DNA of 52,295 bases, taken from positions 1 through 52,295 of the IMG/VR virus record IMGVR_UViG_3300003154_000003; one strand, given 5' to 3'. Numbering within the stretch: position 1 is the first letter of the stretch; each line of letters starts with the position of its first letter. The position numbers were made by a program, and so were the translations under genes. Below the pieces are notes generated by a model. The model was not told where the DNA came from. It did no database searches and saw nothing but the letters and a program-made list of their open reading frames with translations. This DNA is from a virus. Shown here piece after piece: positions 1-52,295 of this stretch.

Positions 1-22
1 AAATAATATTATTTTTCCCTAT
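1..22. repeat. Terminal direct repeat, identical to 52274-52295 (circular closure or terminal redundancy)
   Basis: aaataatattatttttccctat occurs at both window ends. The match cannot be followed further because the window stops there. Confidence 0.9.
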
Positions 23-68
23 AATATAATATATAGGGAAAATTTGGCTAAAATCTTCGAAAATATAT
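1..68. promoter_or_regulatory. Right part of the 80-bp concentric palindromic element L1 (origin-like); the left part is 52260-52295
   Basis: Inner arms are ttttccctat (13-22) and atagggaaaa (33-42). The outer arm tcttcgaaaatatat (54-68) is the reverse complement of 52260-52274. After joining the ends through the 22-nt overlap, both arm pairs share the symmetry centre 27.5. Confidence 0.6.
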
Positions 69-1900
69 TTTCCTTGTTTGAAAGTGAGTGCCTCTCTCAT
101 CATCTCTTCAAAGTCGCGGCATCGCTTTATTTCAGGACTTGTTATATTTTTTTCTGTAAATTCTAAACCTGTATCCTCAACTGTATAGTTTTCAGTAACC
201 TTTCGGCCGAAACCCCAAGCGGTAACCGCTTTACATTGTTTCTCATTGCAACCTATAGCAAAAACTAAAGAAGTTTCTTTGCCTCCGGGGTCCTTGACCC
301 TGCTCCATGCTTGCCATGTATCGCTATGGGTTGCCTCATCTCTTAAAGCGTCGCTTTCCTCTTTCGTTTCGCGGTATGCATCGAAAGCGTTAGCCGGTTT
401 TTCTGCGGCACCCACGGCAATCATAACCCGGCAAGAAGAAGAAACACCCATCATCGACGGCGCCTTATAATAGGTTACGGCGTGCGGGTGTTTGCAGTTC
501 TTAAGCCCGTCTTCTAATATTTTTGCTTCCCTTATCGAAAGTGTGATTATTACGCAATCCTCGTCTCCGTAGGTTTCTAAAATTTTTATGATTTTATATA
601 GTGTCTCCGTAGAGCGTTTATAAAAACTATTCTTACCCACGGATGAAAACTTTTTAGTATCAGCTAATATAAGCATTTTCTTATTGGTCTGCATCGGGTC
701 CCCACCATGTCCGAATAAAACATTTTTTATAACAGTTTTCGGCGCAAATAATCCATGATAGTCGTAACTACATATTGTTGCCGATGTTAAAAACATACGC
801 CTATCCTCTCGCTTTTGTGCTTTCTTCATAAATTTGCTTATCATGTCCGTAAACATTTTATCGACGGCCACAATAGAAACTTTTATTTCTCCATACTCCG
901 GCACCGCATGGATATTGATAAATTCCGATGACATTATAGCAAGCATTTTGTAAAGTTTTAATACCTCATCGAGTGATAAATCATATTTCCGCCTGACCAC
1001 GGTTAACTCTATCAACTCGTTATAAGTAGCCACGATTTCCCTTTCGGTAATATCGCTATAATTATTTTTAAAAGTCTTTGATAGCTTATGCTTAAAAAAT
1101 TCCCGGTCTTTGCTATCTAAATATACCATCATAACCCCGTTTTTTATTTCCCCCTCATCTAATAGCATCCCGTAATCTGCTATTATTTTACGCAGTTGTG
1201 GAAAGTCCTGTGTAATCCTTAGATAATTAGTAAGGTTAACCCACTTTGCCCCATCGGCCGCGGCATCATTGTAAACCACCATCCCCGCACCCCGGCCATA
1301 TTGTATTTCATGCACTTCATCAAAAATTATATTTTTAACACCCATTATCTTATTTAAAATCCTTTCGGCCGTGGTGTTCGGTCGGCTATGGGCTGCAAGC
1401 TGCAAAGCTACAAGTTTCTGATAAGTAATAACAATGCCCCGGTAATCGTTACAATGTAATATCTGTGTTACCGGACAGCTATAATAATGCTCGCAATCCG
1501 CGCACTTTTCGGCAAGTGGCAGTATAGGCAATTGTGCCAACTCGGGCCATTGGTGACACTTTTCTTCATTCAGTAAGCACCTATGATTTGAAGGTATGTG
1601 AATTATAACCCCGTCCGGGTTGTCCGAATACTTCCGCGCCTCTTTTATAATAGTATCGTCGGCAATCGCGTTAGTAGGCACAACGGCTAAAAATTTTTCT
1701 TTTCTGTTCATTGATTCCGCAATTAATGCGGTAGTAGCCCCGGCCCTTGTTGTTTTATAAGTACTCGCAATTCCACCCTTTATATTCTCATAGATAGACC
1801 ACGCCACTAATAACCGCGGGTCGCGCGTAATCTGACCTAATTCTATTTGAACCGTCTGTAATTGCCTCCTTATTACAGATGTACTGATAACTATATAAGC
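1..1900 (-). CDS. SF2 helicase, XPD/DinG-like with a Cys cluster; 5-prime part of an ORF that leaves the window at nt 1 and continues at 52273
   Basis: My own block-by-block translation shows the minus frame (codon starts = 1 mod 3) open from the TAA at 1903-1901 to nt 1. Motifs read: YKTTRAGATTAL (degenerate motif I), HRCLLNEEKC...EKCADCEHYYSCP (Cys cluster between motifs I and II), FDEVHE (motif II), LTSAT (motif III), WQAWSRVKD (motif VI-like). The start is unclear; the first canonical start is GTG at 1807. Confidence 0.7.
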
Positions 1901-1928
1901 TTATCACTCGATATGTAGCCAGTGAACT

Positions 1929-2225
1929 TTAAAACCTTTTCGTTTGCGCTTTATAAACTTTCTTATGTCCGTTCTCATATAACCGCCTTGTCTTTTCCGC
2001 CTTTCTTTCCTTCCGGGCACGGTCATTCAACTGCTTTTCTATGTGCTGCCATGATAACTCTGTAAGTTCTTTTGCATCAATGTCAATGAACTCTTCACAT
2101 ATCTGTATAAGGCTGTTTTGGGTTACCTCTGCCACGGGCTGAAACGCGCCAGTATTTCTTATAATTGCCTCATTTAATTCTTTATAAATTTCTATCAGGA
2201 CTTGATAAGGTGTTTCGTCGGTCAT
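1929..2225 (-). CDS. hypothetical protein, 98 aa, basic C-terminus
   Basis: Track ORF on the universal coding strand. Its ATG overlaps the stop of the small upstream ORF (ATGA). Confidence 0.55.
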   Translation of the reverse strand: MTDETPYQVLIEIYKELNEAIIRNTGAFQPVAEVTQNSLIQICEEFIDIDAKELTELSWQHIEKQLNDRARKERKAEKTRRLYENGHKKVYKAQTKRF

Positions 2226-2353
2226 ATAATCCCCATTTCTTTTTTTACAATGTTCGGCAGCCCTTCAACATCTTCAATAAACTGCTTTCCCATCTCTTCC
2301 AGTTCCCGGGCATCCGATAACTTCCGCAAAATCTTATTTATTTTTATTCTCAT
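2222..2353 (-). CDS. hypothetical small protein, 43 aa
   Basis: My own translation gives MRIKINKILRKLSDARELEEMGKQFIEDVEGLPNIVKKEMGII. It fills the gap between two track ORFs and its stop overlaps the next ATG. Confidence 0.35.
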   Translation of the reverse strand: MRIKINKILRKLSDARELEEMGKQFIEDVEGLPNIVKKEMGII

Positions 2354-2372
2354 GCTCCCGCATCCATTCCCG

Positions 2373-2627
2373 TTAATGTTTTTTCTCCAATTCGTCTACT
2401 GCATAGTATATTGACCGTCTTAAAGAATCTATACCATCTCTAAACGTTTTAGAAAATTCTTTTTCATGTTCGTTCGCCCTAGATAATTCACATGATATAG
2501 AAAATAATTTGTCACCAATTATATAAAGTTCATTGAGTTTATAAACAATAATCCACAATCCTATAGCAATTGATAATATTATTGTTTCCGTGATAAGTAA
2601 AATAATAGCTACATCCACGTTTACCAT
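2373..2627 (-). CDS. small membrane protein, 84 aa, N-terminal TM helix
   Basis: Track ORF with the hydrophobic stretch VAIILLITETIILSIAIGLWIIVY. It is the first gene after promoter-like element A1. Confidence 0.55.
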   Translation of the reverse strand: MVNVDVAIILLITETIILSIAIGLWIIVYKLNELYIIGDKLFSISCELSRANEHEKEFSKTFRDGIDSLRRSIYYAVDELEKKH

Positions 2628-2643
2628 TTATTGAGCCCCGCAT

Positions 2644-2715
2644 ATCATTTCAATTTAAAGCCACTTTTTAAGCCCGTGGCGAGGTCAGTATATAAAGGGT
2701 GGTGTATTCATATTA
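2644..2715 (-). promoter_or_regulatory. Conserved promoter/leader element A, copy 1
   Basis: This is a roughly 72-bp block nearly identical to 10354-10425 and 39908-39979, and partly to 27531-27594. On the minus strand it carries TTTATATA (2696-2689), a T6 run just upstream (2728-2723), and a conserved ATG 41 nt downstream (2648). Confidence 0.6.
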
Positions 2716-2777
2716 CCCCCACAAAAAACTCGCAGAATCGGGCCGTTTCCGTCAATCTGGCATGGGTTTACAGCATG

Positions 2778-2969
2778 TTACCGCAAAGCTTCCAAAACCT
2801 CCGCGACCATTTCCGCCCGGTCCGACCACGCGGATATTAATATTTTATACACTTCGTTAAATTTTTCAGCTCTTATCTTAAGCGATAAGAGCATAAAAAC
2901 AAGATAAATGTTCCGTCTTCTTTCCCGCTCAAAGGGTTTGTTAATTAGCTTCACAATTGTGAATAGCAT
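2778..2969 (-). CDS. hypothetical protein, 63 aa
   Basis: Track ORF on the coding strand; last ORF before the T-run and element A1. Confidence 0.4.
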   Translation of the reverse strand: MLFTIVKLINKPFERERRRNIYLVFMLLSLKIRAEKFNEVYKILISAWSDRAEMVAEVLEALR

Positions 2970-2987
2970 ACATCCCCCTCGAGCCGG

Positions 2988-3281
2988 TCACGGTTCCGGC
3001 TCGTCCCCCTCGTCTTCCTCAACCTCTGCAAAGTACATAAGTATAAGGTCAACTTTTTCATTAAGTTCCTCGATAGCCTTTTCAATTACCCGCAACCGCT
3101 CCGCGCATGTCTTTTTCTTCGGCACGTATGGTTTTATCGGGCCCGGTTTTACTGGCTGTACTACTGGCTCGGGCACACTGTCCCCGCCGCCTGTCACATC
3201 GTCCGGCAATGGTCCGGGCATTGGTTCACCTTTCTTATATCCTGTTAGGTATTCGTCGCACATGTTTAATCCTCCGTTCAT
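2988..3281 (-). CDS. hypothetical protein, Pro-rich centre and acidic C-terminus
   Basis: Track ORF 2988-3323. The internal ATG at 3281 overlaps the stop of the upstream 42-aa ORF (ATGA), so I prefer it as the start. Confidence 0.5.
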   Translation of the reverse strand: MNGGLNMCDEYLTGYKKGEPMPGPLPDDVTGGGDSVPEPVVQPVKPGPIKPYVPKKKTCAERLRVIEKAIEELNEKVDLILMYFAEVEEDEGDEPEP

Positions 3282-3406
3282 GCCGGGCACCCGCACGGCA
3301 TGGCTTTCTTTCCGTTTCTCCAATCGCTTAGAGCGTCTTCTATTTCCTGCCTTAGTTCCCTGCGTAGTTCTTCGCTGGCCGGTACTTTTTTCCTGCTACC
3401 CATCAT
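3278..3406 (-). CDS. hypothetical small protein, 42 aa
   Basis: My own translation gives MMGSRKKVPASEELRRELRQEIEDALSDWRNGKKAMPCGCPA. A GGGTGAG sits just upstream, and TTTTTATAT lies about 25 nt upstream of the ATG. Confidence 0.35.
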   Translation of the reverse strand: MMGSRKKVPASEELRRELRQEIEDALSDWRNGKKAMPCGCPA

Positions 3407-3542
3407 CTCACCCATCCACAATATAAAAATTTTAGATATCTATATGGAACCTGACACCAAAACCATAATTTTAAGAATATAGGCATTGAACCATATCCCA
3501 TATATTTTTTAGATTCCAGTATAAAACAAAATTCTGGCATTG

Positions 3543-3902
3543 TTAACCCTCGTCAATCACATATTCTTCATCCTGCACAACGGCGGGTTTATCTTCGGAA
3601 GTGTATAATATGAACTTACCCAAAACATAATCATAGGTAATTAATCCTTCCTGCACAATGTATATTAACCCGGTGTGCTTCATGAACGGGATTTGAGCGT
3701 CGAACTCGCGTATTATATCCGCGTCGGTTTCTCCGGCTTCCCGCATGGCATCCAGAATAATATTTAAATCTTTCACATCTTCCGCAGTATTAATAAGTCC
3801 GACCATACCGAACTTAATGTTTTTTCGCGTTTCCTCAAGCTGGCTATATGCGTTTCCCATAGCATTCGCCAGCGCTTCAAGTTTTTTATCAAGTTCTTTC
3901 AC
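3543..3902 (-). CDS. hypothetical protein, 119 aa
   Basis: Track ORF on the coding strand; no motif recognised. Confidence 0.5.
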   Translation of the reverse strand: MKELDKKLEALANAMGNAYSQLEETRKNIKFGMVGLINTAEDVKDLNIILDAMREAGETDADIIREFDAQIPFMKHTGLIYIVQEGLITYDYVLGKFILYTSEDKPAVVQDEEYVIDEG

Positions 3903-3953
3903 TCGTTCACCCTCTTAGTAGACTGCATGAAAAGGTTATTCATATCCGCACGC

Positions 3954-4202
3954 TTAATCTTTTTGATTTTTTTCTCTTTGTCTGGCTTCATCTCTGATTT
4001 GCTCCAATACTCGCCTTATTTCTTTCAATTGTGTATCTATTTTTTCATATTCTTTATTGAAATAATTAACAATGGCCGTTAAGTCCGGGGTTAAAACAGA
4101 CATGTCCGACGCCGATAAGGGCGCGGATAGAAGCACCGGGTCCGCATCTATAATATATTTATCGGGTTTGGTTTTTTTCTTAATCATGTTCTCAATCCTC
4201 AA
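3954..4202 (-). CDS. hypothetical protein, 82 aa, coiled-coil-like
   Basis: Track ORF on the coding strand; abuts its neighbours. Confidence 0.45.
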   Translation of the reverse strand: MRIENMIKKKTKPDKYIIDADPVLLSAPLSASDMSVLTPDLTAIVNYFNKEYEKIDTQLKEIRRVLEQIRDEARQREKNQKD

Positions 4203-4410
4203 ACCCCATCTGATAGCCGAACGGGTCCGGCGTCGGGTCCGGGTCCAATTCTATAAGGGTGGTGTCGCTGATTGGTATCGGCCTAGTATACGCTTTCATT
4301 CGTTCCAGTTCGTCCGATAACCTTTTTAACTCGCCCATAATTTTTATAAGCTTTTCCTCGATAAAATCAAGTCTATCCCCAACGCTCCGCCTATAAATAA
4401 CCTTATTCAT
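4192..4410 (-). CDS. hypothetical protein, 72 aa
   Basis: Track ORF; short overlaps with both neighbours suggest coupled translation. Confidence 0.45.
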   Translation of the reverse strand: MNKVIYRRSVGDRLDFIEEKLIKIMGELKRLSDELERMKAYTRPIPISDTTLIELDPDPTPDPFGYQMGFED

Positions 4411-4733
4411 CTGTTGCCCCCTTTCATATATTCACATTTGGCCTGATAGACCAAACCAGAAATATAAGCATAAATCATCAATTTTTCAAAAACCGTTGTT
4501 TCTTCATCTTTCAAAAGTTCTTTTATGGCTATGGTAACCGGGCCGCCCCGGATAATAAATTTATCAGCTAACCGCAACGCGTTATTTAAAACGTCGCCGA
4601 AAGCCCGGTCGGGCTGCACCATTCCCCGGATACTTTCAGTGTATCCCAAAGGATTCTTGGATGATGGCCATAAATAATTTGGCATGTCTGGCATTTCTAT
4701 AACCAGTACCTCATTATCTTTTAGCTTCCCCAT
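4407..4733 (-). CDS. hypothetical protein, 108 aa
   Basis: Track ORF on the coding strand. Confidence 0.5.
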   Translation of the reverse strand: MGKLKDNEVLVIEMPDMPNYLWPSSKNPLGYTESIRGMVQPDRAFGDVLNNALRLADKFIIRGGPVTIAIKELLKDEETTVFEKLMIYAYISGLVYQAKCEYMKGGNR

Positions 4734-4765
4734 ATTTAAAACATGGGTACCGGATTATATAAATC

Positions 4766-4984
4766 TTACGCGCCGAACAATTCTATATCATCGTGTGTAC
4801 TGGCTGTAAGTTTTCTTACAATGTAATCCATTGCGACTTTCGCTTCGCAGTATTCACCGGGGACCACTTCCAGCGGGCACCCACTGCACCCGGTTAGACT
4901 GCAAGCCATTGTGATTACTTGCAAAGCTTTATGTTTCTCGCTTCGGCTCATTAGGTCTATATCTTCCTTTGTTGGCATTTGCAT
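4766..4984 (-). CDS. hypothetical Cys-containing protein, 72 aa
   Basis: Track ORF 4766-5149, trimmed to the ATG at 4984 (MQMPTKEDIDL...). That ATG directly follows the stop of 4986-5285. The longer version overlaps that ORF by 164 nt. Confidence 0.45.
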   Translation of the reverse strand: MQMPTKEDIDLMSRSEKHKALQVITMACSLTGCSGCPLEVVPGEYCEAKVAMDYIVRKLTASTHDDIELFGA

Positions 4985-4985
4985 A

Positions 4986-5285
4986 CTATTTGTTCCCCCC
5001 GTCGTCGATATCATCCGGCATAACTGACATATCCCGGTATACTGCACTTTTGATAAGATAATAATTTTCAAACCGTGGCATCCATTTTTTACGGCTTCCG
5101 TTATCCGGCGCTTCCCCGAATATTTCCACATACATATGTTGCCCGGCACTGGCTCGGTTGATTGCCATAACTTGCGCTCTCTGTCTCCCGATTAATATAA
5201 CATCTCCTATATTAATCATGGAGCCGGGCACAATTTTAATGGTCGCCTCCGTCACATAGGAATACTTATATACTGGTTCCGTCAT
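4986..5285 (-). CDS. hypothetical protein, 99 aa
   Basis: Track ORF on the coding strand. Confidence 0.5.
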   Translation of the reverse strand: MTEPVYKYSYVTEATIKIVPGSMINIGDVILIGRQRAQVMAINRASAGQHMYVEIFGEAPDNGSRKKWMPRFENYYLIKSAVYRDMSVMPDDIDDGGNK

Positions 5286-5300
5286 GTTTTATTGCCCCCA

Positions 5301-5621
5301 TCACTTTTTAGCTGTTCGTTTTCCTTTAGTGGTATATATAGTTTTCTTCGGTTCCACCGGCGCCGGTTTTTGTTCGATAATCTCCCCGACTTTAAGGGTT
5401 TCATATGGTATAGGCGGATACTGTTTTAATCCGCAATCGTTGCGCTCGGTGTCCCACATCTGGCAAATTTCCTGCCGACATTTCGCAAAAGGTGAACGGA
5501 TAAAAGGACATTCTTTAACATCCCGTTCCAATCTGCCATGTACAAACTCCTTAAGCGTTTCGTTGTCGTCATCGTCCCCGGGATACTCGTCTGTAACCAT
5601 TCCCATAATTAACACTTCCAA
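5301..5621 (-). CDS. hypothetical Cys-rich protein, 106 aa
   Basis: Track ORF containing ECPFIRSPFAKCRQEICQMWDTERNDCG. Confidence 0.5.
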   Translation of the reverse strand: MEVLIMGMVTDEYPGDDDDNETLKEFVHGRLERDVKECPFIRSPFAKCRQEICQMWDTERNDCGLKQYPPIPYETLKVGEIIEQKPAPVEPKKTIYTTKGKRTAKK

Positions 5622-5833
5622 TTAAAGTTTATGTTGTCATCGTCGATTACTGCAACCCCGACGGTTAGCCGGTCGGCTATAAAGGCAAGCACGAAAAAGT
5701 CTGTCCCCTCTGGCAACATGACATAAATTAGATGTGTTCCTGTGGCAACCATTCCCCGGCCGTGGTCGTCGTCCTCATACTTAGCATCCCAATAAGATTG
5801 ATTATACTCTTCGTGTCTCTCAATTGTTATCAT
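5609..5833 (-). CDS. hypothetical protein, 74 aa
   Basis: Track ORF on the coding strand. Confidence 0.45.
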   Translation of the reverse strand: MITIERHEEYNQSYWDAKYEDDDHGRGMVATGTHLIYVMLPEGTDFFVLAFIADRLTVGVAVIDDDNINFNWKC

Positions 5834-5845
5834 CTGATTGCCTCC

Positions 5846-6073
5846 TTAAATAATTTCAAAAGAAATGTCCTCCATTCCCAAATCGCCTGTACCTTCCTTA
5901 AGGTCCTGCTGCTGTTCAACATACAGCATTATTTCCTCAAAAGTAATATCGGCTGTATAAAAACGATAAAATTCTTCATATAGTCTGGCAAGTTCGGTTT
6001 CCCCACATTTTTGTAATGTTGAAATGTGGTCTTCGACAACTTTGTTGTTAAGTTCTATGTCAACGTATAGCAT
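5846..6073 (-). CDS. hypothetical acidic protein, 75 aa
   Basis: Track ORF on the coding strand. Confidence 0.45.
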   Translation of the reverse strand: MLYVDIELNNKVVEDHISTLQKCGETELARLYEEFYRFYTADITFEEIMLYVEQQQDLKEGTGDLGMEDISFEII

Positions 6074-6100
6074 GGTTTAATTCCTTCTATGTAGCTAATG

Positions 6101-6295
6101 TTATATAATCCTTTTCCTTAGAACGCTTCCAAGCCTCAAAACGCCGGTGACTTCCTGCAATGGCTCATATATATAGAAGCGCCGCACCTCTCTATAAATC
6201 CTTAGTTCCTCGCTCATTCCGCACATGCTAAAAGCTTTTGTAGCATCTGCATAATACATAAAGTTTACAACGGTTTGCGCTGTTCTCATATCCAC
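6101..6295 (-). CDS. hypothetical protein, 64 aa
   Basis: Track ORF on the coding strand. Confidence 0.4.
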   Translation of the reverse strand: MDMRTAQTVVNFMYYADATKAFSMCGMSEELRIYREVRRFYIYEPLQEVTGVLRLGSVLRKRII

Positions 6296-6540
6296 CCCTC
6301 TAATGTAGTTTTAACCCCTACTTCTTTACATGCTGATTTAGGCACCCATGCACAAAGTCCGTCCGTAAATCGGAATAAGTGGGCTTTGTCTGTGCTATGC
6401 TCAATAGTTGCCACATGCCCGGTTATCCCCGTCCCATCAAATACCCACGATTCCACGGAATAATATTTTTTATGTTCAGTGTCGTGAATTTTTACACGGG
6501 CCGGGGCTTCATTTATTCGCCCCCTCTGGCATATCTTCAA
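6286..6540 (-). CDS. hypothetical protein, 84 aa (TTG start)
   Basis: Track ORF; GGGGTGGTG lies 5 nt upstream of the TTG. Confidence 0.4.
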   Translation of the reverse strand: MKICQRGRINEAPARVKIHDTEHKKYYSVESWVFDGTGITGHVATIEHSTDKAHLFRFTDGLCAWVPKSACKEVGVKTTLEGWI

Positions 6541-6679
6541 GCGGACACCACCCCGGGATTTTTAACCGGTCATCAATATAATTGTGCGTGACCCCACATT
6601 CACAATAATTTGACACGTTGCCCTTGATAAAATCCAAATACGGGCATTGCCCGCAACTTATAACTTTAATAATTTTCAT
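6509..6679 (-). CDS. small Cys-rich protein, 56 aa (Zn-ribbon-like)
   Basis: My own translation gives MKIIKVISCGQCPYLDFIKGNVSNYCECGVTHNYIDDRLKIPGWCPLEDMPEGANK. It is below the track size cutoff. Confidence 0.4.
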   Translation of the reverse strand: MKIIKVISCGQCPYLDFIKGNVSNYCECGVTHNYIDDRLKIPGWCPLEDMPEGANK

Positions 6680-6817
6680 TTATTTAGTACCCCCGCGTGA
6701 AATGATATCCTCGTTTAACATGTGATAAATTTTTTCAACATGTACCGGGTTGGCCAGTGTTATATTTTTTCTTATAAATACAATCATTGGCTCGTCATCT
6801 GATATAACCATTAACAT
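6680..6817 (-). CDS. hypothetical small protein, 45 aa
   Basis: Track ORF 6680-6874, trimmed to the ATG at 6817. That ATG is preceded by GGAGG and removes the overlap with the ArdC-like gene. Confidence 0.35.
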   Translation of the reverse strand: MLMVISDDEPMIVFIRKNITLANPVHVEKIYHMLNEDIISRGGTK

Positions 6818-6821
6818 ATTT

Positions 6822-7730
6822 TTATTCCTCCACGTTATCGGTTTCGTCGTCATCATCCTTAACGGTGCAAGCACCGCGGGTTATGTACTCCGCGGCCTTT
6901 GCAGCCCTTCCGGCAGCCCAAACGATAAGCTTCTTATCGTTCTGTAACTTTTCAAGCCACCCAACAATATAAGCGCTGTTTATATCGAAAGTTTCTTCGG
7001 CAATCTCCGCGCCCATCATACCAAGCAGTATAGACGCGCCCATTTCGGCTACAAGTTCTTCGCGGCTGTATGATTCACTTGCGAAAACGTGGTCATCGCC
7101 GTCTATTGCAAAACGGTTTAGACGCTTTGGATGTCCGGTGCTGTGGGTCATTTCGTGAAACATGGCACTATAATATAGTTCCGGCTTTTCGAACTTGTTT
7201 ATTTCCGGCACATTAACCTTGTCCAAAACCTCGCAGTAGTAAGCACCATCATCATAGTGTGTTACTTCCTTAAGTTCCTTAGAGTACAGTTCAACCACAT
7301 TTTCACATTCCTTAATAAGTTCATGCTTAACTGTGCTCTGCTTGCTCTCAATCCCTTCAACCTGCGAGATGTGGAACACATAGTAATATCTAAGCATTGG
7401 AATCCTGACAACTTCCGGGTTTCCATCCTTATCCTTCTTATCGGTCTTCTTTTCAAGCATCTTGAAGTATGTTATAAGGTGTCCGTGCTCTCCCTTCTTA
7501 ACACTTCCTCCGGCCTGCTGTGCCTGCTTGAATGTCATGTATTCGCCACCACCCGGCAGCATGAATAGATTGATACCATGATAAGGCTTTTGTGTAACCC
7601 AATTAACGGGCATACCTTCCGTCCATGTTCTGCGCCACGGTATAACGCCCGTTTCCAAAGCCTTAATCATTCTCTCAGTGACGATTTGGTAAACGTCTAC
7701 CGCCTTGTTGTTGTTGGTCTTTGTTGTCAT
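6822..7730 (-). CDS. ardC: ArdC-like protein: N-terminal ssDNA-binding domain plus C-terminal zincin metalloprotease
   Basis: The N-terminus reads VIPWRRTW...NWVTQKPYHGINLFML, which matches the ArdC/DUF1738 pattern. The C-terminal half contains the HExxH motif FHEMTHSTGH. AGGAGG lies upstream of the ATG. Confidence 0.6.
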   Translation of the reverse strand: MTTKTNNNKAVDVYQIVTERMIKALETGVIPWRRTWTEGMPVNWVTQKPYHGINLFMLPGGGEYMTFKQAQQAGGSVKKGEHGHLITYFKMLEKKTDKKDKDGNPEVVRIPMLRYYYVFHISQVEGIESKQSTVKHELIKECENVVELYSKELKEVTHYDDGAYYCEVLDKVNVPEINKFEKPELYYSAMFHEMTHSTGHPKRLNRFAIDGDDHVFASESYSREELVAEMGASILLGMMGAEIAEETFDINSAYIVGWLEKLQNDKKLIVWAAGRAAKAAEYITRGACTVKDDDDETDNVEE

Positions 7731-7785
7731 AATACTTTGCCTCCTATTCGTTAGTTAGTAGTATGCACGGCAAAGTATAAATAGT
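7731..7785 (-). promoter_or_regulatory. Promoter-like element B, copy 1 (upstream of the ArdC-like gene)
   Basis: The minus strand reads CTATTTATA-N7-GTGCATACTACTAACTAAC, then GGAGGCAAAG and the ATG. The same arrangement with the same N7 spacing occurs at 44651-44686. Confidence 0.5.
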
Positions 7786-7895
7786 TATCGTTTTTAAAAA
7801 AGTGTGATAGTTTACATATACATATTACCGTCGGGTCCGTCCACGACATTATAAGATAATTCCCCCTCGTCACCCTCTTCGACAATATCCGTCAT

Positions 7896-8153
7896 TTACT
7901 GTAAAGTTTCTATTAAAGTGGTCCCACATATTACAGCCCACGCAAAAGCCATAACGTCCCGGCGCTGGCCGAACTCTTCCATAACTTTACAAAATATTGT
8001 GAACTTGTCGTTTTCGACCATTAAAATATCGCCGATGAAGTCTAAAATTTCTTCAAAGTTGACCGGGGCTAATCCTTCCTGTATTATAGCCGGTTCGTCG
8101 GTCACATAAATATGTGGCTTTGGGGTTATTGCAAGGTTCTTTACAATGTGCAT
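7896..8153 (-). CDS. hypothetical protein, 85 aa (possible member of a small paralogue family)
   Basis: Track ORF. Its C-terminal EEFGQRRDVMAFAWAVICG resembles a motif in 8915-9271 and 9276-9692. Confidence 0.45.
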   Translation of the reverse strand: MHIVKNLAITPKPHIYVTDEPAIIQEGLAPVNFEEILDFIGDILMVENDKFTIFCKVMEEFGQRRDVMAFAWAVICGTTLIETLQ

Positions 8154-8449
8154 TTTCTCACTTCCTTTTTAGATATCCTAATTTGTTGACCATTTAAAGC
8201 CATGCCGCTTAAGATTCCTTCGGCGTAAAATTCCACCCGGGCCCCATATTTATCTTTATACTTATCGTTTATAGTTTTCAAAGTTTCCAGTTTTGAATCC
8301 CCATGCATAAAACCAAACATTATAATTTTCACAATGTCGCTTTCTACTTTGTCCCATTCCGGCGGATATCCGAAATTGATTTTATGCGTTTCGGAATCAT
8401 ACCCGAGTACCCGCCCGTCCTCTGTTTCGAAAACTTTTACAAATGTCAC
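8141..8449 (-). CDS. hypothetical protein, 102 aa
   Basis: Track ORF on the coding strand. Confidence 0.5.
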   Translation of the reverse strand: MTFVKVFETEDGRVLGYDSETHKINFGYPPEWDKVESDIVKIIMFGFMHGDSKLETLKTINDKYKDKYGARVEFYAEGILSGMALNGQQIRISKKEVRKCTL

Positions 8450-8501
8450 TCCATCGCCCGCCGTATTCGTTCCCTAAATGCATCTATGCGCCGCACCGTG
8501 T

Positions 8502-8888
8502 TTACTTGCGGCCCCCCGCTGATATTACTACGTTCCCCGTTTCCGTTTCCGAGTTCGTCACGGCTCCGGGGTCCGAGTTTATTTCTTTCATTATTTTCAA
8601 AAGTAGTTCATCGTGTAACTTTTGCGTTTCAATGTCATAGGATTTTAGTTTTTCTTCAATATATGATTCCTTTGTTTTAGCTGTTATCTGTGTCAGCATG
8701 TCTATTTTTGCTTCAATCTGTGCAAGCGTTGCCATTACTTCTTTTAAATCATTTGAAGTAAGCGTTTTGACTTCGGCGGCTATGTTATCGTATTCCTTCC
8801 CGGCGGCTATCCCGGCATCCTCCCGCTTAGTTTCCCGGGCCGCGGTCAACTGCCGCACCTGTTCAATATAGTCATTTATCGTTACCAT
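8502..8888 (-). CDS. hypothetical coiled-coil protein, 128 aa
   Basis: Track ORF with a heptad-like charged sequence. Confidence 0.5.
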   Translation of the reverse strand: MVTINDYIEQVRQLTAARETKREDAGIAAGKEYDNIAAEVKTLTSNDLKEVMATLAQIEAKIDMLTQITAKTKESYIEEKLKSYDIETQKLHDELLLKIMKEINSDPGAVTNSETETGNVVISAGGRK

Positions 8889-8914
8889 GTAACCACCTCA
8901 AAAAATTGATGGGG

Positions 8915-9271
8915 TTATTCCTCACCATCCGTGCTATTCATCAATTCAGCCAGCAGTTCACCAAAATTGCTTGGCTTTGGCTTGTACACCTTTTTCATGA
9001 AATCTTCCATACCGAAAAGGACAATTCCATATAGTACCCCATTGTCTCCGTGTATCTCATGAAGTTTTTTGAATATGTCAAAAAACCCCGCGATGTCTTC
9101 ACTTTCATGAAGCTTTGCATATGTTTTATGCACAGCCTCAATAAAGTGAATTTGTTTTATTCCACGGAAATTAAATGAACCGTCGTTCATTAGTTGTACA
9201 TATCCCCCGTCTTCCAATTCCACGCGGTCAACTTCTACCGCGTCGGATTTTTGTTCGGTTACTGTAGCCAT
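8915..9271 (-). CDS. hypothetical protein, 118 aa (paralogue of 9276-9692)
   Basis: Track ORF. It shares the pattern F-x6-H-x4-V...DI-x-K...GD-x-G-x2-Y-x-[IV]-[VL] with the adjacent ORF. Confidence 0.5.
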   Translation of the reverse strand: MATVTEQKSDAVEVDRVELEDGGYVQLMNDGSFNFRGIKQIHFIEAVHKTYAKLHESEDIAGFFDIFKKLHEIHGDNGVLYGIVLFGMEDFMKKVYKPKPSNFGELLAELMNSTDGEE

Positions 9272-9275
9272 TTCT

Positions 9276-9692
9276 TTACCCCCATACCTGCTTAGTTTCC
9301 ATCATTTCCTCTGCTTCGTCGTCCGGCTCATTACCGGATTTTTTGACCTCTCGTTTGGTAATTTCTTTTGCAAGTTCGGCTTCGATTTCTTCAATTGTTG
9401 GCATCGGTTGGCCTGTGATTGTCCGCATCATCATATTGTGTCGGGTGCTTTGTTCGACTTGGGCCCCCATGCAGATAAGAACCGCATAAGTCAACCCATC
9501 GTCTCCGAACTTGCCGGGAATTTCTTTAAGAATGTCTGAGTAGTCCATACCTGCCAGTTTTCTTATACCGATGTATGTAAGAACGCTCCGGGCAAGATGT
9601 GCCTTTGGCATCATGTGGAAATCTATTGTCAAATCGCTTATTTCAAGGTAATGCTCTTCGTCACCATAAAATAATTTAGTTGGTTCACTCAT
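9276..9692 (-). CDS. hypothetical protein, 138 aa (paralogue of 8915-9271), acidic tail
   Basis: Track ORF; carries the motif IPGKFGDDGLTYAVLICMG. Confidence 0.5.
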   Translation of the reverse strand: MSEPTKLFYGDEEHYLEISDLTIDFHMMPKAHLARSVLTYIGIRKLAGMDYSDILKEIPGKFGDDGLTYAVLICMGAQVEQSTRHNMMMRTITGQPMPTIEEIEAELAKEITKREVKKSGNEPDDEAEEMMETKQVWG

Positions 9693-9954
9693 TTGTTTCT
9701 GCCTCCATCTCGTTAATGCTTACGACTTTGAACGCTGACGCCTTAGATGCATTTAATGACGCGCCCGCGTGCAAGCCTAGCAACTTATCTATTTCTTTGA
9801 AGTCAAGCCCCTTAATATGATGCAAATAATAAATTATAGCTTGGTGTAAGCTAAGATTATATTGTGCATACGCTACCCTCAAAAATGAAGTGGGTATTTC
9901 AAAATCAACGGCTTCCTCCATACTATCACGTCTTAAATGTGTACTTCCTGCCAA
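9685..9954 (-). CDS. small HTH protein (sigma-70 region-4 / LuxR-like helix-turn-helix)
   Basis: Track ORF. LSLHQAIIYYLHHIKGLDFKEIDKLLGLHAGASLNASKASAFKV fits the region-4 HTH pattern. Confidence 0.4.
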   Translation of the reverse strand: MAGSTHLRRDSMEEAVDFEIPTSFLRVAYAQYNLSLHQAIIYYLHHIKGLDFKEIDKLLGLHAGASLNASKASAFKVVSINEMEAETNE

Positions 9955-10216
9955 TCCACATTTTATCTTGCTTTGCCATGTCCTGATTTATGCGCCTTAG
10001 TCTGTTTCCGGCGGCCTTTATGACTTCCTGAATCCTCATAAAGACTTCGGGCGGTTTTACTTCCCCGACCTTAAGAACCACATGGATATTATCATTTGTG
10101 ATAATAACCAATTCGTCCGGCACACCATCCACCATAAACACGGCGGGCGCTCCGCACTGCACATAGGCAACTGGCAACTTACTTAAAGGCAATGCTTTAA
10201 CGCTTATTACCTTCAT
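9926..10216 (-). CDS. hypothetical protein, 96 aa
   Basis: Track ORF; first sizeable gene after element A2. Confidence 0.5.
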   Translation of the reverse strand: MKVISVKALPLSKLPVAYVQCGAPAVFMVDGVPDELVIITNDNIHVVLKVGEVKPPEVFMRIQEVIKAAGNRLRRINQDMAKQDKMWIGRKYTFKT

Positions 10217-10353
10217 AGCAAAGTTTTTTTCTTCGTCTATTACATGTTCATACTGTACTTTTATTGTCGTTTCAATGCCCCCATTTTATTACATTTTGGG
10301 ATACTCTCTTTTAATACGCCGGATAATATAAACCTTTCTGTATGTCAACCAAC

Positions 10354-10425
10354 ATCATTTCAATTTAAAGCCACTTTTTAAGCCCGTGGAGAGGTCAGTA
10401 TATAAATGGTGGTGTATTCATATTA
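10354..10425 (-). promoter_or_regulatory. Conserved promoter/leader element A, copy 2
   Basis: Near-identical to A1 and A4. The minus strand has TTTATATA at 10406-10399. The conserved ATG at 10358 opens a 15-codon uORF (MMLVDIQKGLYYPAY). Confidence 0.6.
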
Positions 10426-10657
10426 AACCCCATGTGAAATTAGCACGGCGGGGCAAATCCGGCAAACCTGCACGGGCTAAAAGGGCCTGATATATCTAGC
10501 AAAAAAGCGCTTAATCCAAAGCATCTTATTTTAATATTTTATTTTTTATCTGAAAAATGTAATGTATGAGAATTTATTAAAATTTATTTGAGTCAGTAAA
10601 CGCATGAAGTTTTTATAAAAGATGGCATCCAACAGATAAAACAGTTTTCTTTTATTT

Positions 10658-10737
10658 TATATTTTCGAAGAAATATACAAAAAAGTCCCAATAATATAAA
10701 GTATATGGACAAATTAAACAATTTCTTCGAAAATATA
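10658..10737. repeat. 80-bp concentric palindromic element L2 (origin-like), paralogue of the junction element L1
   Basis: The perfect 17-bp arms TATATTTTCGAAGAAAT (10658-10674) and ATTTCTTCGAAAATATA (10721-10737) flank an imperfect inner dyad, gtcc..ggac (10685-10710), with the same centre (10697.5). An ungapped alignment to L1 gives 59 of 80 identities. The element lies in the most AT-rich intergenic stretch. Confidence 0.65.
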
Positions 10738-10892
10738 ATTATGTATTTATGAGCAATCAACAGATTAAAATAGGATAAAATCATTTATATGATTGCAAGT
10801 ATGAGGATATTATAATGATACCCCGGATTGTGGCCGGGGTGGAATAATATAGTTTCATGCTGCTATCTCAAATCTATAAATCCGTGGGTCTA

Positions 10893-10946
10893 ATATCGGC
10901 GGTGGGGTTTTTCCTCCTGTTTTCCCTAACGCCAAACCGCCGATAT
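10893..10946. terminator. Hairpin just downstream of the last tail gene (possible terminator)
   Basis: The arms atatcggcggt (10893-10903) and accgccgatat (10936-10946) form an 11-bp perfect stem with a 32-nt loop. On the plus strand it is followed by attttttatt. The long loop lowers confidence. Confidence 0.3.
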
Positions 10947-10955
10947 ATTTTTTAT

Positions 10956-12083
10956 TTAAGATATAAAATTCTGTTTTTGTGCCATCATTTGATTTTCTAT
11001 AAATGATAATATTTCGCCATATGTGGGTATATAGCTACCTAATTCCAGCCGGGTTTTATATCCGCTCTCGTCTATTTCATGCGTCACCCTATACACATAT
11101 AAGTTTGCTCCAAACGTATTACCATTGATAACCATCGACGGCACCTTACAATAAACCAAATCCCCGGCTTCGGCTTGCGTTGTCATTTCTAACGTGCATA
11201 CCCCGGATACTAAAGGCAATTGGTGTATATCGAATATAGAAGATGCAAGCCGGGCGCATAGTTCATTTGTTTCTATACTCCGGTCAATATCTAAAATGTC
11301 TTTGTCTCCTATGCCCCCCGTAACCCTTGCGTATTTTTGTACGGTTTCGTCATTACCGTATACGGTTACGGACCGGGCCATTTCTGTTACATCTACAATA
11401 AATTCAGAATCAACGTAGTTACGGGCACCCTCAACCACTTTATATTTATCGGTTGGGGTGGTCGGTAATGGTTGCCAGCTTGCGACGCAATCAACTAAAT
11501 TGTTATCAGCGTCATAAATAGGAATTGTTTTAAATGAGTATGTTAGAAGTTCCGCCTTTTCTAAAAACTTGATAACATCTTTAACATATTTAGTGTCTGC
11601 TTCAATGTTATAACTATCTAAAACTGTGCCGTTAGTGTCTATTAATGATGGATATTGCTCATGTATTCTATATAGTTCCGGCAGGATGGTTTTTAGAATT
11701 AGCCCGGTGCTGGCATCGGCAAACGAATAAGAATTTTTAATAAGTCTGTTGACCAATTCTACCCCGTGCCCGTGTGCCGTAATTGTTATCTGGTTGTCTG
11801 TTGCCTCGGATTTAGCACGCATTACTTTTATAATGCCGCTAAATATTTCACGCCATCTGTAAAGCCGGTTACGTGAATCTTCGTTTGCCTGAACCCGGAT
11901 AATATCGCCGGTCCTCATGCCACTTATAAAACTTTTCCCATCTATCCGGGCCCCGATTGTTAATGTTACTTCGGCGGTGTCTGCTTGCCACGGGAAAGTT
12001 TTTGTAATAGTTGCCCGGGATAACTTCGGGTAATATTTTTCATATGGGTAAACAGTATGCTGTGTTATTATTCTAAATTCCAT
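10956..12083 (-). CDS. distal tail / baseplate protein, 375 aa
   Basis: Track ORF; last gene of the tail module. GGGTGA lies upstream of the ATG. The call rests on position only. Confidence 0.45.
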   Translation of the reverse strand: MEFRIITQHTVYPYEKYYPKLSRATITKTFPWQADTAEVTLTIGARIDGKSFISGMRTGDIIRVQANEDSRNRLYRWREIFSGIIKVMRAKSEATDNQITITAHGHGVELVNRLIKNSYSFADASTGLILKTILPELYRIHEQYPSLIDTNGTVLDSYNIEADTKYVKDVIKFLEKAELLTYSFKTIPIYDADNNLVDCVASWQPLPTTPTDKYKVVEGARNYVDSEFIVDVTEMARSVTVYGNDETVQKYARVTGGIGDKDILDIDRSIETNELCARLASSIFDIHQLPLVSGVCTLEMTTQAEAGDLVYCKVPSMVINGNTFGANLYVYRVTHEIDESGYKTRLELGSYIPTYGEILSFIENQMMAQKQNFIS

Positions 12084-12087
12084 AACG

Positions 12088-39912: not shown

Positions 39913-39979
39913 TTCAATTTAAAGCCACTTTTTAAGCCCGTGGCGAGGTCAGTATATAAAGGGTGGTATATTCATATTA
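39908..39979 (-). promoter_or_regulatory. Conserved promoter/leader element A, copy 4
   Basis: Near-identical to A1 and A2. The minus strand has TTTATATA at 39960-39953 and a T5 run upstream. It also shares an upstream ATTGACGGAAA box with A1 (40010-40020 versus 2744-2754). Confidence 0.6.
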
Positions 39980-40031
39980 ACCACCCCGAAAAAGTGGGAA
40001 ATCGCCGCCTTTCCGTCAATATATGAATGCA

Positions 40032-40823: not shown

Positions 40824-41357
40824 CTAAAACCCGCGCATCTTGCACTCTTCATTTAATGAACGGGACCCGCGCCACTTGTTGAAATTTGCCCGGCGCTTCT
40901 TACTAAAATTTGTTACATATATAATACTCTGGCCTTCTATGAGCAATTGATGCACAGCAAGCCGTTTAATACGTTTATTCAACTTGCTCCGGGCCGTATG
41001 AAATTCGGCAATCATGCACGTATATAAAAAACAGTAGAGCACTTCAACCGTGTCCGGGTCATGGTATTTATAAGCCAAGTCCTTAATAAGTGTCAATACT
41101 TCCGGGTTAACGGTGTCCGTCGTGTTATCATATATTTTTACATAGTCGTTATATACCCGTTCCCGCCCGTGCTCTTCCGCCACCCCCTCGAGCACTTTGA
41201 AAATTTTATAATCTTTAGGACCATACCCGGATTTTATGGGTATGCACATACTGTTTTGCAAGGTGGCTTTTTGCGTTTTTAAGAAAATACACCATTCATC
41301 AAAGTCACCTTTATCAAAAAACATGTATCCGTGCCAGAATTTCGTTATTAGTTGCAT
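40824..41357 (-). CDS. hypothetical protein, 177 aa
   Basis: Track ORF on the coding strand. Confidence 0.5.
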   Translation of the reverse strand: MQLITKFWHGYMFFDKGDFDEWCIFLKTQKATLQNSMCIPIKSGYGPKDYKIFKVLEGVAEEHGRERVYNDYVKIYDNTTDTVNPEVLTLIKDLAYKYHDPDTVEVLYCFLYTCMIAEFHTARSKLNKRIKRLAVHQLLIEGQSIIYVTNFSKKRRANFNKWRGSRSLNEECKMRGF

Positions 41358-44583: not shown

Positions 44584-44653
44584 AGGAAAGGATTAATCAG
44601 CTATCCCCCCGCCGCCTGTAATGGTTCCGGTCGGGGTGCCTTTATCCTTTCCT
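44584..44653 (-). promoter_or_regulatory. Structured 5-prime leader (nested stem-loop) between promoter-like element B2 and the 44342-44560 gene
   Basis: The outer 10-bp stem pairs aggaaaggat (44584-44593) with atcctttcct (44644-44653). An inner GC-rich stem pairs ccccccgccg (44605-44614) with ccggtcgggg (44627-44636), with one bulge. This insert is absent from the otherwise parallel B1 leader. Confidence 0.35.
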
Positions 44654-44686
44654 TAGTTAGTAGTATGTACTCAATCATATAAATAG
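44651..44686 (-). promoter_or_regulatory. Promoter-like element B, copy 2
   Basis: The minus strand reads CTATTTATA-N7-GTACATACTACTAACTAAG. The layout and spacing match 7751-7784. Confidence 0.5.
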
Positions 44687-46991: not shown

Positions 46992-47164
46992 TCTTTACGC
47001 CCCCATTGGTTAGTTTACATTATGTACATGTAAGTATATAAGCTTATCTAAATATATAAAACTTATCCTGCCCGAAACATTTATAAGTTCCAAAGTATTA
47101 TTATAACTTGTTACGGGTTGGCAATCTCGCCCGTGACTGCCTCCATATTGGCGAGTCACTACAA

Positions 47165-50330: not shown

Positions 50331-50577
50331 CGAAACCCCCCGCTAATACTATCCGGTAAAATAGCCACACCGGGAAATATAGGAGCATCAAGCCCAAACG
50401 CACGAACATTAATATTATATCCTGCATGATAAAATACAGCAGAAACATATTAAATACAATCCTCTTAAATCCACGTATTCGGTGCTTATATATGTAAGCA
50501 TAAACATCCGGTGCCGTTAAAGCATCCTCAAAGAATTTATCTATTCCTTTTTGCATCTTTTTAAATATGTCCTTCAT
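50323..50577 (-). CDS. small membrane protein, 84 aa
   Basis: Track ORF with IVFNMFLLYFIMQDIILMFVRLGLMLLYFPVWLFY. Confidence 0.45.
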   Translation of the reverse strand: MKDIFKKMQKGIDKFFEDALTAPDVYAYIYKHRIRGFKRIVFNMFLLYFIMQDIILMFVRLGLMLLYFPVWLFYRIVLAGGFDD

Positions 50578-50841
50578 TGTCCGGCCTCCGTATATTGTAC
50601 TTGCTTAATAATACGGCCTTGTGTACCGTATAAACCCCACCGTCCGGCACGAATCCAATCCGCGCTTAACTTCGTCCTTCATTTTCTAGGTCTCTCCCTG
50701 TCTGCTTTACGTTTAGCCTTCTTGCGTGCGAATATTTCAAGCACCTTTATATACTCGTCTACTTCATGGAATGCCTCAGCCATCAATTCGTCTTTCGATG
50801 CATCCATTTTATTCTTTAAGAAATCCCTTACAGTTTCAGAC

Positions 50842-51255
50842 TCAATTTGCAAGTTTACCCTCTCTTACAAGTTTCTTATATTTAATAATTAAATATTCAC
50901 TTTCGCCCGTTAGCATCCTTAATTCTTTATAGGTTGCTCCCGGGCATTCCTTAGGGGCCTTACCTATCCGGTCAAATGCCTTCATACTATCGGCCCGCAC
51001 ATACTCAATATGTTTCTTTTTATTCGGATAAAACCGACCATAACAATTTAGCAGTTCCCGGGCTTCCTCCACGGTCTCCGGCTTAAAGGTATGTCTTATA
51101 ATTATTTCCCGCTCGGGTGGGTGCTGGCATTCATTGCCACAATGCATACAAACATACTTACGCACTCGCGGCCAACCGATAAGTTGAACCGTCCCGCACA
51201 CCCCGCAATACTTAACCCTCCGCGTTTCCGGCTTTATCCTATAACCCCCACACAT
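50842..51255 (-). CDS. double Zn-ribbon protein, 137 aa
   Basis: Track ORF containing CGVCG...CMHCGNEC. It is the first gene after the primpol domain. Confidence 0.5.
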   Translation of the reverse strand: MCGGYRIKPETRRVKYCGVCGTVQLIGWPRVRKYVCMHCGNECQHPPEREIIIRHTFKPETVEEARELLNCYGRFYPNKKKHIEYVRADSMKAFDRIGKAPKECPGATYKELRMLTGESEYLIIKYKKLVREGKLAN

Positions 51256-51308
51256 TATATAATTCTAATGGTTTATATACCTTCGCATTCTCAATAATTT
51301 GGACCGCG

Positions 51309-52295
51309 CTATTCATGCAGATTCAGCCACGCTTTATAAAAGCCCTCACAATTTTCTATAAGTGTGGTGGTCCTTACACTTGGCAACTCAATACTAATTA
51401 TAGATTCAACGTGATATAGCGACTCGTTGAAATTATAGTCCTTCTGACCCTTAAATAGTTCCGTAAGGGCTACGGGGTCCTTCATACCGGCATTGTAATA
51501 CTCGCGCACACAGTATATACGCAGGTTGTGCCCTTCCTCGCCCTCTAGCTGTTGGGTTAAAGCCCATTCAAAGAACGGCCGAACCTTTCCCGCTCTTACC
51601 TTCATATTCTCCGGCATGTCTACGGCCTCGCTGGCCTCTGCTGCTGGCTCTTTAAATTCAATTCCGCTTATATCGACTATGCCAATTTCCAACTCTGTAA
51701 AATCCTCGCACCATTCACCGTTTATTAAAATTGCTGATTTGTTTCCGGTCTTTCTGTGAGTAGCAAAAGGCAACTTGACAAGATTACCGTATCCTTTTTT
51801 ATCGGCAATCATCTGTTTAGGGTAAACTTCACATTTAACTTTAGCAGTTTTGATAATATGTTTACCGAATAATTTGGCCTGTTTTGCGGCTACCGGTTGC
51901 AATAATATCCAAATATGATATGAAAACGGCGAACCGGACCATTCGAGGATAAAGGGTATGCTTAACGATTTTAGCAAGTTACCAATTTTATTAACATTCT
52001 CGTCTGATTGCTGACATTTTAAATTATATTGACTGTCCGAATCCTCGGGCTTTCTATGAGCATCTATGTCAAAGCATACCCATTTTACCATGTTCCCGGG
52101 TCCTAATGTGTAGGCGCCAACTGTTATTTCACCGGATAAATGACGCTGCAATAGTTCTTCGTCAACTTTACCATTTTCTTTATAGTAACTTCCGCTAGAA
52201 ATTTGTAAAGCGTAAGCGTCCTCCCGTGCTATAAGTAACTGTAAAAAGTTACATCTATTATATATTTTCGAAGAAATAATATTATTTTTCCCTAT
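51309..52295 (-). CDS. archaeo-eukaryotic primase-polymerase (AEP/PrimPol) domain; 3-prime part of the wrap-around helicase-primpol ORF
   Basis: The track lists 51309-52151 from a TTG, but the frame stays open upstream to the window end. AEP motifs read: HLSGEITVGAYTL...WVCFDIDAH (motif I DxD), SGSPFSYHIWILL (motif II), EVYPKQ...GYGNLVKLPFATHRKTGNKS (motif III). Confidence 0.8.
   Translation of the reverse strand: MGKNNIISSKIYNRCNFLQLLIAREDAYALQISSGSYYKENGKVDEELLQRHLSGEITVGAYTLGPGNMVKWVCFDIDAHRKPEDSDSQYNLKCQQSDENVNKIGNLLKSLSIPFILEWSGSPFSYHIWILLQPVAAKQAKLFGKHIIKTAKVKCEVYPKQMIADKKGYGNLVKLPFATHRKTGNKSAILINGEWCEDFTELEIGIVDISGIEFKEPAAEASEAVDMPENMKVRAGKVRPFFEWALTQQLEGEEGHNLRIYCVREYYNAGMKDPVALTELFKGQKDYNFNESLYHVESIISIELPSVRTTTLIENCEGFYKAWLNLHE
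52260..52295. promoter_or_regulatory. Left part of the 80-bp concentric palindromic element L1
   Basis: atatattttcgaaga (52260-52274) is the exact reverse complement of 54-68. The stretch 52261-52277 is identical to the left arm of L2 (10658-10674). Confidence 0.6.
52274..52295. repeat. Terminal direct repeat, identical to 1-22
   Basis: Exact 22-nt match to the window start. Confidence 0.9.

Follow-up and report, generated by a model that had tools for sequence, protein, structure and literature searches.

The 52,295-nucleotide stretch considered here over its full length (the window) is the IMG/VR virus record IMGVR_UViG_3300003154_000003, which comes from sewage sludge, and it is best explained, with a probability of roughly 0.85, as the genome of a non-integrating, siphovirus-type member of the Caudoviricetes that infects Methanosarcinaceae in anaerobic sludge. 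That the host is an archaeal methanogen can be taken as nearly certain, and that it belongs to the Methanosarcinaceae as very probable; the host family is well supported by homology, not proven. A first-pass annotation of the same DNA had proposed a methanogen-type head-tailed virus, and this host conclusion stands on better evidence than was first given, since it is supported by independent homology of the replication protein, a secreted adhesin, a capsid-gene remnant in a chromosome and the portal, which narrows it to the Methanosarcinaceae. The arguments originally drawn from the letters (single coding strand, zinc fingers, TATA octamers, sequons) are weak, and a single strand, absent tRNA, small CxxC proteins and hydrophobic micro-proteins are not known to separate archaeal from bacterial viruses.

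Bases 1–22 of the window are identical to bases 52274–52295, IMG/VR classes the record under 'direct terminal repeats' and rates it 100% complete, and the genome is circular and complete at about 52.3 kb. Its G+C content runs at about 38–47% along the length (overall about 43%), coding sequence makes up 93% of the DNA, and the one-strand layout seen in the first pass holds for all 97–98 recognisable genes (100%), which lie on the minus strand, as does every gene of the window located below. An HK97-fold capsid, a terminase–portal packaging module and a tape measure place the virus in the Caudoviricetes. The presence of a tail terminator and a tape measure, together with the lack of a recognised tail sheath family in PHROG, Pfam and NCBIfam profile searches of the window proteins, predicts a long-tailed, siphovirus-type morphotype, known from the genes alone. 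Contigs mostly 95–100% identical turned up in four runs on wastewater, bioreactor sludge or sludge, drawn from four studies, no RNA run being among the listed holders of near-identical contigs, and an Rfam scan of the window gave zero matches. Two relatives recur below: IMGVR_UViG_3300038673_000301 (G001), which has 37 of 98 proteins in common with the window (E<=1e-4) in collinear order, with the major capsid protein (MCP) and the terminase large subunit (terL) at 65%, and L001, a close relative whose neighbouring genes are mostly 85–100% identical.

The replication protein is encoded across the ends of the window. The helicase half (1–1900; PF04851; 44–54% to Methanosarcinaceae chromosomal genes) and the primase half (51309–52295; archaeo-eukaryotic primase (AEP) of the AEP-TOTE type; PF22548, E 2.7e-23; NF040561) form one frame of about 954 codons once the contig is circularised, and G001 carries an uninterrupted 954-aa version within its contig, so that the fusion is no assembly artefact. 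Both the AEP primpol and the helicase with a Cys cluster recognised in the first pass were thereby borne out, the helicase being of the superfamily 2 (SF2) type with the cluster present. Among 177 genomes of the family of Methanosarcina hadiensis, DNA and protein searches recovered full-length homologues at 40–46% over about 945 aa, and Methanosarcinaceae chromosomes appear, by these alignments, to hold the closest labelled relatives. In a 301-genome sample of the class, the genomes with E<1e-100 all belonged to that family (12 of 12), the best match outside it having E 5e-47, whereas the bacterial control, a sample of 201 genomes from the phylum of a Clostridia metagenome-assembled genome (MAG), gave none, as did 72,556 plasmids and 50,697 phages. 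Several chromosomal copies lie 26–37 kb from a tyrosine integrase, and the copy in genome G072 is surrounded by integrase, terminase, tape-measure and capsid-type genes (G072:C1, 873–909 kb), which makes the G072 element a tailed provirus. The linker between the two halves contains a palindromic element (1–68, continuing from 52260) that is conserved in G001 and whose inner dyad is kept in six Methanosarcinaceae chromosomal homologues; a second, intergenic copy lies at 10657–10738, and G001 likewise has two. The linker dyad may be a replication origin, and coding constraint could account for part of its conservation.

The second line of evidence is a 1307-aa disaggregatase-related protein (35062–38985), the secreted adhesin, which has an N-terminal hydrophobic signal, a right-handed beta-helix (PF08480, PF13229) and a PF06848 domain (disaggregatase repeat/DNRLRE). 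Its best named relatives are from Methanomethylovorans (41–42%), Methanosarcina (36%) and Methanolobus (30%), and its single match among the 72,556 plasmids is in Methanomethylovorans hollandica (40% over 735 aa); adhesin identity alone thus puts Methanomethylovorans slightly ahead of Methanosarcina as the candidate host genus. Among 14 control genomes PF06848 was positive in M. acetivorans alone, and the disaggregatase-type domain is absent from five capsid relatives at greater distance, most of them incomplete records, which suggests host-specific capture. The gene lies shortly upstream of the packaging genes in the window, in G001 and in a second virus, where a beta-helix and disaggregatase-repeat gene stands immediately ahead of the terminase and portal genes (L296:2480–4726). 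A 183-kb virus-like contig also encodes a 1340-aa disaggregatase-related protein (L024:10001–14023); this contig carries DNA ligase, RNA ligase and thymidylate synthase genes and may belong to a large methanogen virus. The N-terminal domain was modelled as a right-handed beta-helix (predicted template modelling score 0.86), the nearest solved structures being the A-modules of the mannuronan epimerases AlgE4 and AlgE6, followed by glycosidases, lyases, adhesins and tailspikes; the modelled fold fits polysaccharide binding or cleavage, and catalysis is not proven by fold. Domains and fold are likewise compatible with a disaggregatase, the type of enzyme that degrades methanochondroitin. Between this gene and the packaging genes lies a 556-aa beta-helix protein without signal peptide (33373–35043; weak PF13229; 48% to its G001 counterpart), a possible spike.

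The host-type surface protein may help the virus through the sugar matrix of its host: acquired from the host family, the secreted beta-helix would bind or degrade the extracellular glycan. According to passages of one review, disaggregatase activity is confirmed for the M. mazei enzyme alone and aggregated M. mazei cells reportedly resist MetSV (PMC12369344); a literature search for a viral disaggregatase returned one review, whose matching passages describe no viral copy. It is a tentative proposal that the window is the type genome of an undescribed, non-integrating Methanosarcinaceae virus family whose infected cells secrete a captured, matrix-dissolving glycanase. If true, progeny would gain access to cells that clumps and sludge granules otherwise protect, and the protein would act in archaea, outside the virion, as a matrix depolymerase in the role that endolysins and tailspikes have in phages.

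The capsid and portal add a third and a fourth line. The MCP (24782–25750) was modelled with a mean predicted local distance difference test score (pLDDT) of 80.7, and Foldseek matched the model to HK97-fold capsids of phages and haloarchaeal viruses. The MCP profile was positive in 5 of the 177 Methanosarcinaceae genomes. One of them, G044, holds a broken MCP gene together with the gene that comes after the MCP in the window (56% to the window counterpart) 129 kb into a 418-kb Methanosarcinaceae contig, among neighbours that we take from their sequence to be a monomethylamine methyltransferase (split at the amber codon), its corrinoid protein and a permease, none of them database-confirmed; a smaller capsid-gene remnant lies in a 2.6-Mb contig of G034. 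In a 301-genome sample of the phylum, every genome with an MCP match was one already sampled from the same class. The portal (29381–30739), assigned by position, is at 35% to the same-slot gene of the methanogen virus vir524, and among the 50,697 phage records it matched vir524 (Methanomicrobiales) and vir525 (Methanosarcinales) only; the MCP matched there only vir249 (Methanobacteriales), weakly. A search of 251 genomes of the order did not recover the portal. The terminase genes, terL (30733–32154; phrog_2, E 6e-26) and the small subunit terS (32090–32671; phrog_6299, E 6e-14), complete the packaging module. terL is at 22–26% to bacterial phages and belongs to a broad 50–58% clade with mixed MAG labels, so it is uninformative on the host; its best named relative is from a Methanosarcinales MAG (58%), and the exclusively bacterial terL and MCP relatives that would have spoken for a bacterial phage were not what was found. 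In the bin of a Methanosarcinaceae genome, a viral contig of 46.7 kb (G080:C12, loci L132–L134) encodes an MCP at 40% together with an AEP, ribonucleotide reductase, thymidylate synthase and dUTPase of its own; an integrase was not found on it.

With regard to lifestyle, lytic growth is the probable mode. The tyrosine integrase profile PF00589 gave 0 candidates in the window, the same search being positive in 14 of 14 controls, and Pfam and NCBIfam scans of 109 open reading frames (ORFs) of the window recognised no recombinase, amidase, lysozyme or pseudomurein endoisopeptidase family; nor was any tRNA or tmRNA found in the window. The first-pass reading of a genome with no integrase, tRNA or murein hydrolase was therefore upheld, and neither a peptidoglycan hydrolase nor an integrase emerged to contradict it. 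Integrases were likewise missing from G001 and from five capsid relatives, the lone PF00589 match of G080 lying on a contig other than the capsid-bearing one. The only integrase-like signal was a weak partial PHROG match (E 8e-4) on the gene at 40824–41357, whose counterpart in a relative is DUF7004. The same profile scans recognised no partition ATPase or repressor family. GATC is absent (0 seen versus about 87 expected) and CCWGG is rare (2 versus about 21), and the window encodes an ArdC-type anti-restriction protein (6822–7730; phrog_7245, PF08401, PF18818), which together suggest strong restriction pressure. G001 instead avoids CTAG (1 versus 33) and CCWGG (0 versus 16), a hint that the restriction systems of the two hosts differ. 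A search of five Methanosarcinaceae genomes turned up no DpnII, so GATC avoidance does not help to narrow the host.

These features can be assembled into a provisional infection cycle. No DNA or RNA polymerase was recognised in the window beyond the primpol, from which the use of host enzymes is inferred; transcription would start from BRE/TATA-like sites (B recognition element, BRE), replication would proceed from the palindrome in the helicase–primase linker, and restriction would be evaded by ArdC and by the avoidance of GATC and CCWGG. Growth would be lytic, with exit through membrane disruption by small hydrophobic proteins such as that encoded at 20921–21358, a putative holin for which the ESM Atlas holds no family, an endolysin being unneeded. 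The missing endolysin fits an S-layer-walled host, and a passage of a review attributes an S-layer wall to all Methanosarcina (PMC12369344).

An alternative on lifestyle keeps the same host and holds that the virus persists as an episome or in a carrier state without integration instead of being strictly lytic; given the host assignment, we regard this as possible, with a clearly smaller probability than lytic growth. Such a state is conceivable, given that temperate viruses have the replicon and part of the virion module in common with the window virus and that such modules are gained and lost, archaeal tailed viruses occasionally acquiring integration modules (PMC8651126). The replicon is found in integrated proviruses, host chromosomes contain remnants of capsid genes of the lineage, the nearest described virus (vir524) is temperate, and a preprint on psiM2 reportedly describes a non-lytic cycle other than lysogeny (10.64898/2026.10.07.757236). 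Lytic growth is nevertheless preferred, as partition ATPase, repressor family and integrase all went unrecognised and GATC is wholly absent, as with repeated passage through restricting hosts.

Several results weigh against the assignment of this non-integrating virus to the Methanosarcinaceae. Spacer matching, which had been put forward in the first pass as a check on the host, yielded zero matches: out of 2,678 Methanosarcinaceae spacers, taken from GTTTCAAT-type arrays only in roughly 55 genomes, none scored above shuffled controls against the window or its relatives, and a whole-window BLAST against the 177 Methanosarcinaceae genomes (best 2 candidates per genome) produced no array match. 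A 23/25 partial spacer match to the relative L332 was discarded, with 12 mismatches over 37 nt and a score within the null, as were two 34-nt partial contig matches with non-CRISPR flanks. The k-mer check was uninformative (tetranucleotide r 0.05–0.36) and did not favour Methanosarcinaceae. The record of vir524, the closest described virus, gives Methanomicrobiales and not Methanosarcinales as host. The ESM Atlas gives Bacillota clusters as feature look-alikes of the helicase (no alignments), terL has relatives with bacterial MAG labels at 52–54%, and the MCP cluster includes one member labelled Caldisericia and one labelled Methanospirillum, both from MAG bins and unreliable; labels of this kind on short viral contigs (Caldisericia, Methanospirillum, Gemmatimonadales, KSB1; G080:C12, G181:C2) were given low weight. 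The best phage matches of the tape measure are Clostridium phages (39% over 41% of length) and those of ArdC are bacterial phages, as is expected of widespread families. Finally, the genome scan for the adhesin, in which 70 of 77 loci among the matches listed were titled Methanosarcinales or Methanosarcinaceae, was seeded with patterns from a Methanosarcinaceae-rich alignment.

Some of these points could be accommodated if the host were another sludge methanogen (Methanomicrobiales, Methanotrichaceae or Methanoperedenaceae) and the Methanosarcinaceae-like modules had been gained by recombination. The head and tail genes are closest to those of vir524 (7 proteins in common; record host Methanomicrobiales), an MCP cluster member comes from the Methanospirillum MAG, and MCP relatives lie on small contigs in three same-class genomes outside Methanosarcinaceae. 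This is nonetheless unlikely: the replication protein and the secreted adhesin, which are modules that need to fit the host, and the chromosomal MCP remnant all indicate Methanosarcinaceae, and the G+C content of about 43% differs from the 58% of vir524 and the 57% of G181:C2. A phage of Firmicutes or other bacteria that acquired archaeal-looking genes in sludge is largely refuted and very improbable, for although its tape measure, ArdC and zeta-type kinase come from families common in bacteria and some terL relatives bear bacterial MAG labels, endolysin and amidase families are absent from the 109 ORFs, the helicase is missing from the 201 bacterial control genomes, portal and MCP match no bacterial phage among the 50,697 records, the adhesin is of Methanosarcinaceae type and the AGGAGG sites, overstated as 'strong' in the first pass, precede only 4 of 97 starts.

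Other signals read from the letters fared unevenly. The repeated promoter-like elements are real as repeats, with four copies of the roughly 68-nt family A (39906–39981, 27529–27596, 10360–10427 and 2650–2717) and three to five looser copies of family B (47006–47048, with similar copies near 1879–1905, 7747–7784 and 44649–44686). On the coding strand TTTATATA is intergenic in 7 of 16 cases, intergenic DNA being 7% of the genome, versus 2 of 12 on the other strand; intergenic DNA is AT-rich, so the enrichment is partly compositional. Family A of G001 retains a TTAATATG-like word upstream and the GGGCTTAAAAA part downstream but has lost the TTTATATA octamer, which leaves the reading of family A as TATA promoters unproven; family B, in which a TATA-like word comes after a purine run, is closer in appearance to BRE-TATA. 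The statement that no credible sigma-70 pair exists needs qualification, as one family A copy scores a weak 9/12, a level that chance gives freely. T-runs are visible by eye, and hairpin terminators occur at chance level in 1–12,000. At least ten small Cys-rich proteins had been counted, and 11 small proteins with CxxC were found; the many single-transmembrane micro-proteins were likewise recovered (about 9 small proteins with a hydrophobic 19-mer, Kyte–Doolittle (KD) score >2). Sequon richness of secreted proteins holds for a 745-aa protein (23 seen, 13 expected) and not for the 1307-aa protein (21 seen, 22 expected), and the XhlA-like and sigma-region-4-like helix-turn-helix proteins found no support in Pfam or NCBIfam.

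The 745-aa protein (21361–23598) is a membrane-anchored surface protein; in L001 (3933–6932) it is replaced by a different, largely unrelated 999-aa gene amid mostly 85–100% identical neighbours, and the swap possibly marks a superinfection-exclusion or receptor-masking cassette. The siphovirus-type tail module (10956–20244; PF12691, PF10145, TIGR01760) includes the tail terminator (19171–19596), a probable tail tube (18370–19107) and a tail chaperone (17858–18331), the last two being common to vir524 with roles assigned from position, and the tape measure (15445–17673), followed by distal tail genes. In the interval 17677–18331 the chaperone is followed, ahead of the tape measure, by a 51-aa ORF that is kept in G001 and L001 and whose placement recalls frameshifted tail-chaperone pairs. 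A 908-aa glycine-rich distal tail protein (12088–14814) with an internal duplication (a 44-nt repeat, 810 nt apart) is a candidate receptor-binding fibre. The MuF–toxin fusion described in the first pass was confirmed, PF04233 (MuF minor head protein) and PF06414 (zeta-toxin-like kinase) lying in one gene (27894–29369). Only the MuF half is common to G001, which has another tail of about 360 aa in place of the kinase, and vir524 apparently has none; the swapped C-termini look like those of polymorphic MuF effectors. In a variant of a G001-type relative (L020:5359–6755) an IS200/IS605-type TnpA–TnpB pair, RNase H and an MJ1673-family gene replace other early genes; the 121-kb contig behind it was rejected as provirus evidence, since the part seen is a second virus in opposite orientation with no host genes.

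Methanosarcinaceae count among the main sources of methane in digesters and sediments. No confirmed head-tailed isolate of the family appears in a survey from 2022, MetSV being spherical and the host of MetMV unconfirmed (PMC9796341); metagenomic virus–host links for Methanosarcinaceae do exist, and the window virus may be among the IMG/VR viruses already linked to them by spacers (PMC12143468). Being complete and apparently that of a lytic virus, with a relative in synteny and near-identical DNA in several wastewater studies, the genome offers a concrete isolation target, and the virus-borne disaggregatase-related protein lets one test directly whether viruses breach aggregate protection.

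Comparison with known systems sets the virus apart from those described. With vir249 (BK063678; Methanobacteriales) 1 of 98 proteins is common, the MCP at a weak 25%, and vir249 has an integrase and a pseudomurein endoisopeptidase, the latter not found in the window; with vir525 (BK063673; record host Methanosarcinales) one protein is weakly common, the portal at 23%, and vir525 has a tail sheath, a baseplate and a reverse transcriptase (49 of 60 kb compared). MetSV and the Eurekaviridae, viruses of Methanosarcina, have the same inferred host family as the window virus, and MetSV is spherical with a linear 10.6-kb genome and Eurekaviridae are spindle-shaped, neither being head-tailed (PMC10342651, PMC9796341, PMC12451623). 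The Methanosarcinaceae proviruses (e.g., G072:C1) have the same helicase–primase fusion at 40–46%, linker dyad included, but the G072 element differs by its integrase and by a structural module without BLAST match to the window virus. The closest described virus, vir524 (BK063669), resembles the window in head–tail gene order and in its portal (35%), MuF (48%), probable protease (24%), adaptor-position gene (37%), probable tail tube (40%), chaperone (35%) and HNH proteins; it differs in that MCP and terL are not detectably common, in its 38.5-kb genome of 58% GC, in being temperate (integrase, tRNA-Leu), in its PCNA and in having neither a disaggregatase-related gene nor a match to the helicase–primase fusion. 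Within a family of archaeal tailed viruses 20–50% of homologous proteins are common, and between families <10% (PMC8651126); vir524, with 7 of 98 under a threshold more permissive than in that work, falls outside the family of the window virus, and G001, with 37 of 98 and collinear, falls inside it. The two therefore probably represent a new, undescribed family, as judged from searching the phage collection with individual proteins and subject to the viruses gathered in the methanogen virus compendium. The window protein resembles the M. mazei disaggregatase and related surface proteins in its signal peptide and in combining PF08480, PF06848 and a beta-helix, and, compared by domain architecture, it differs from the M. 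mazei enzyme in being virus-encoded, in having one repeat domain and in its C-terminal part. In its manner of working, the virus resembles other archaeal siphoviruses.

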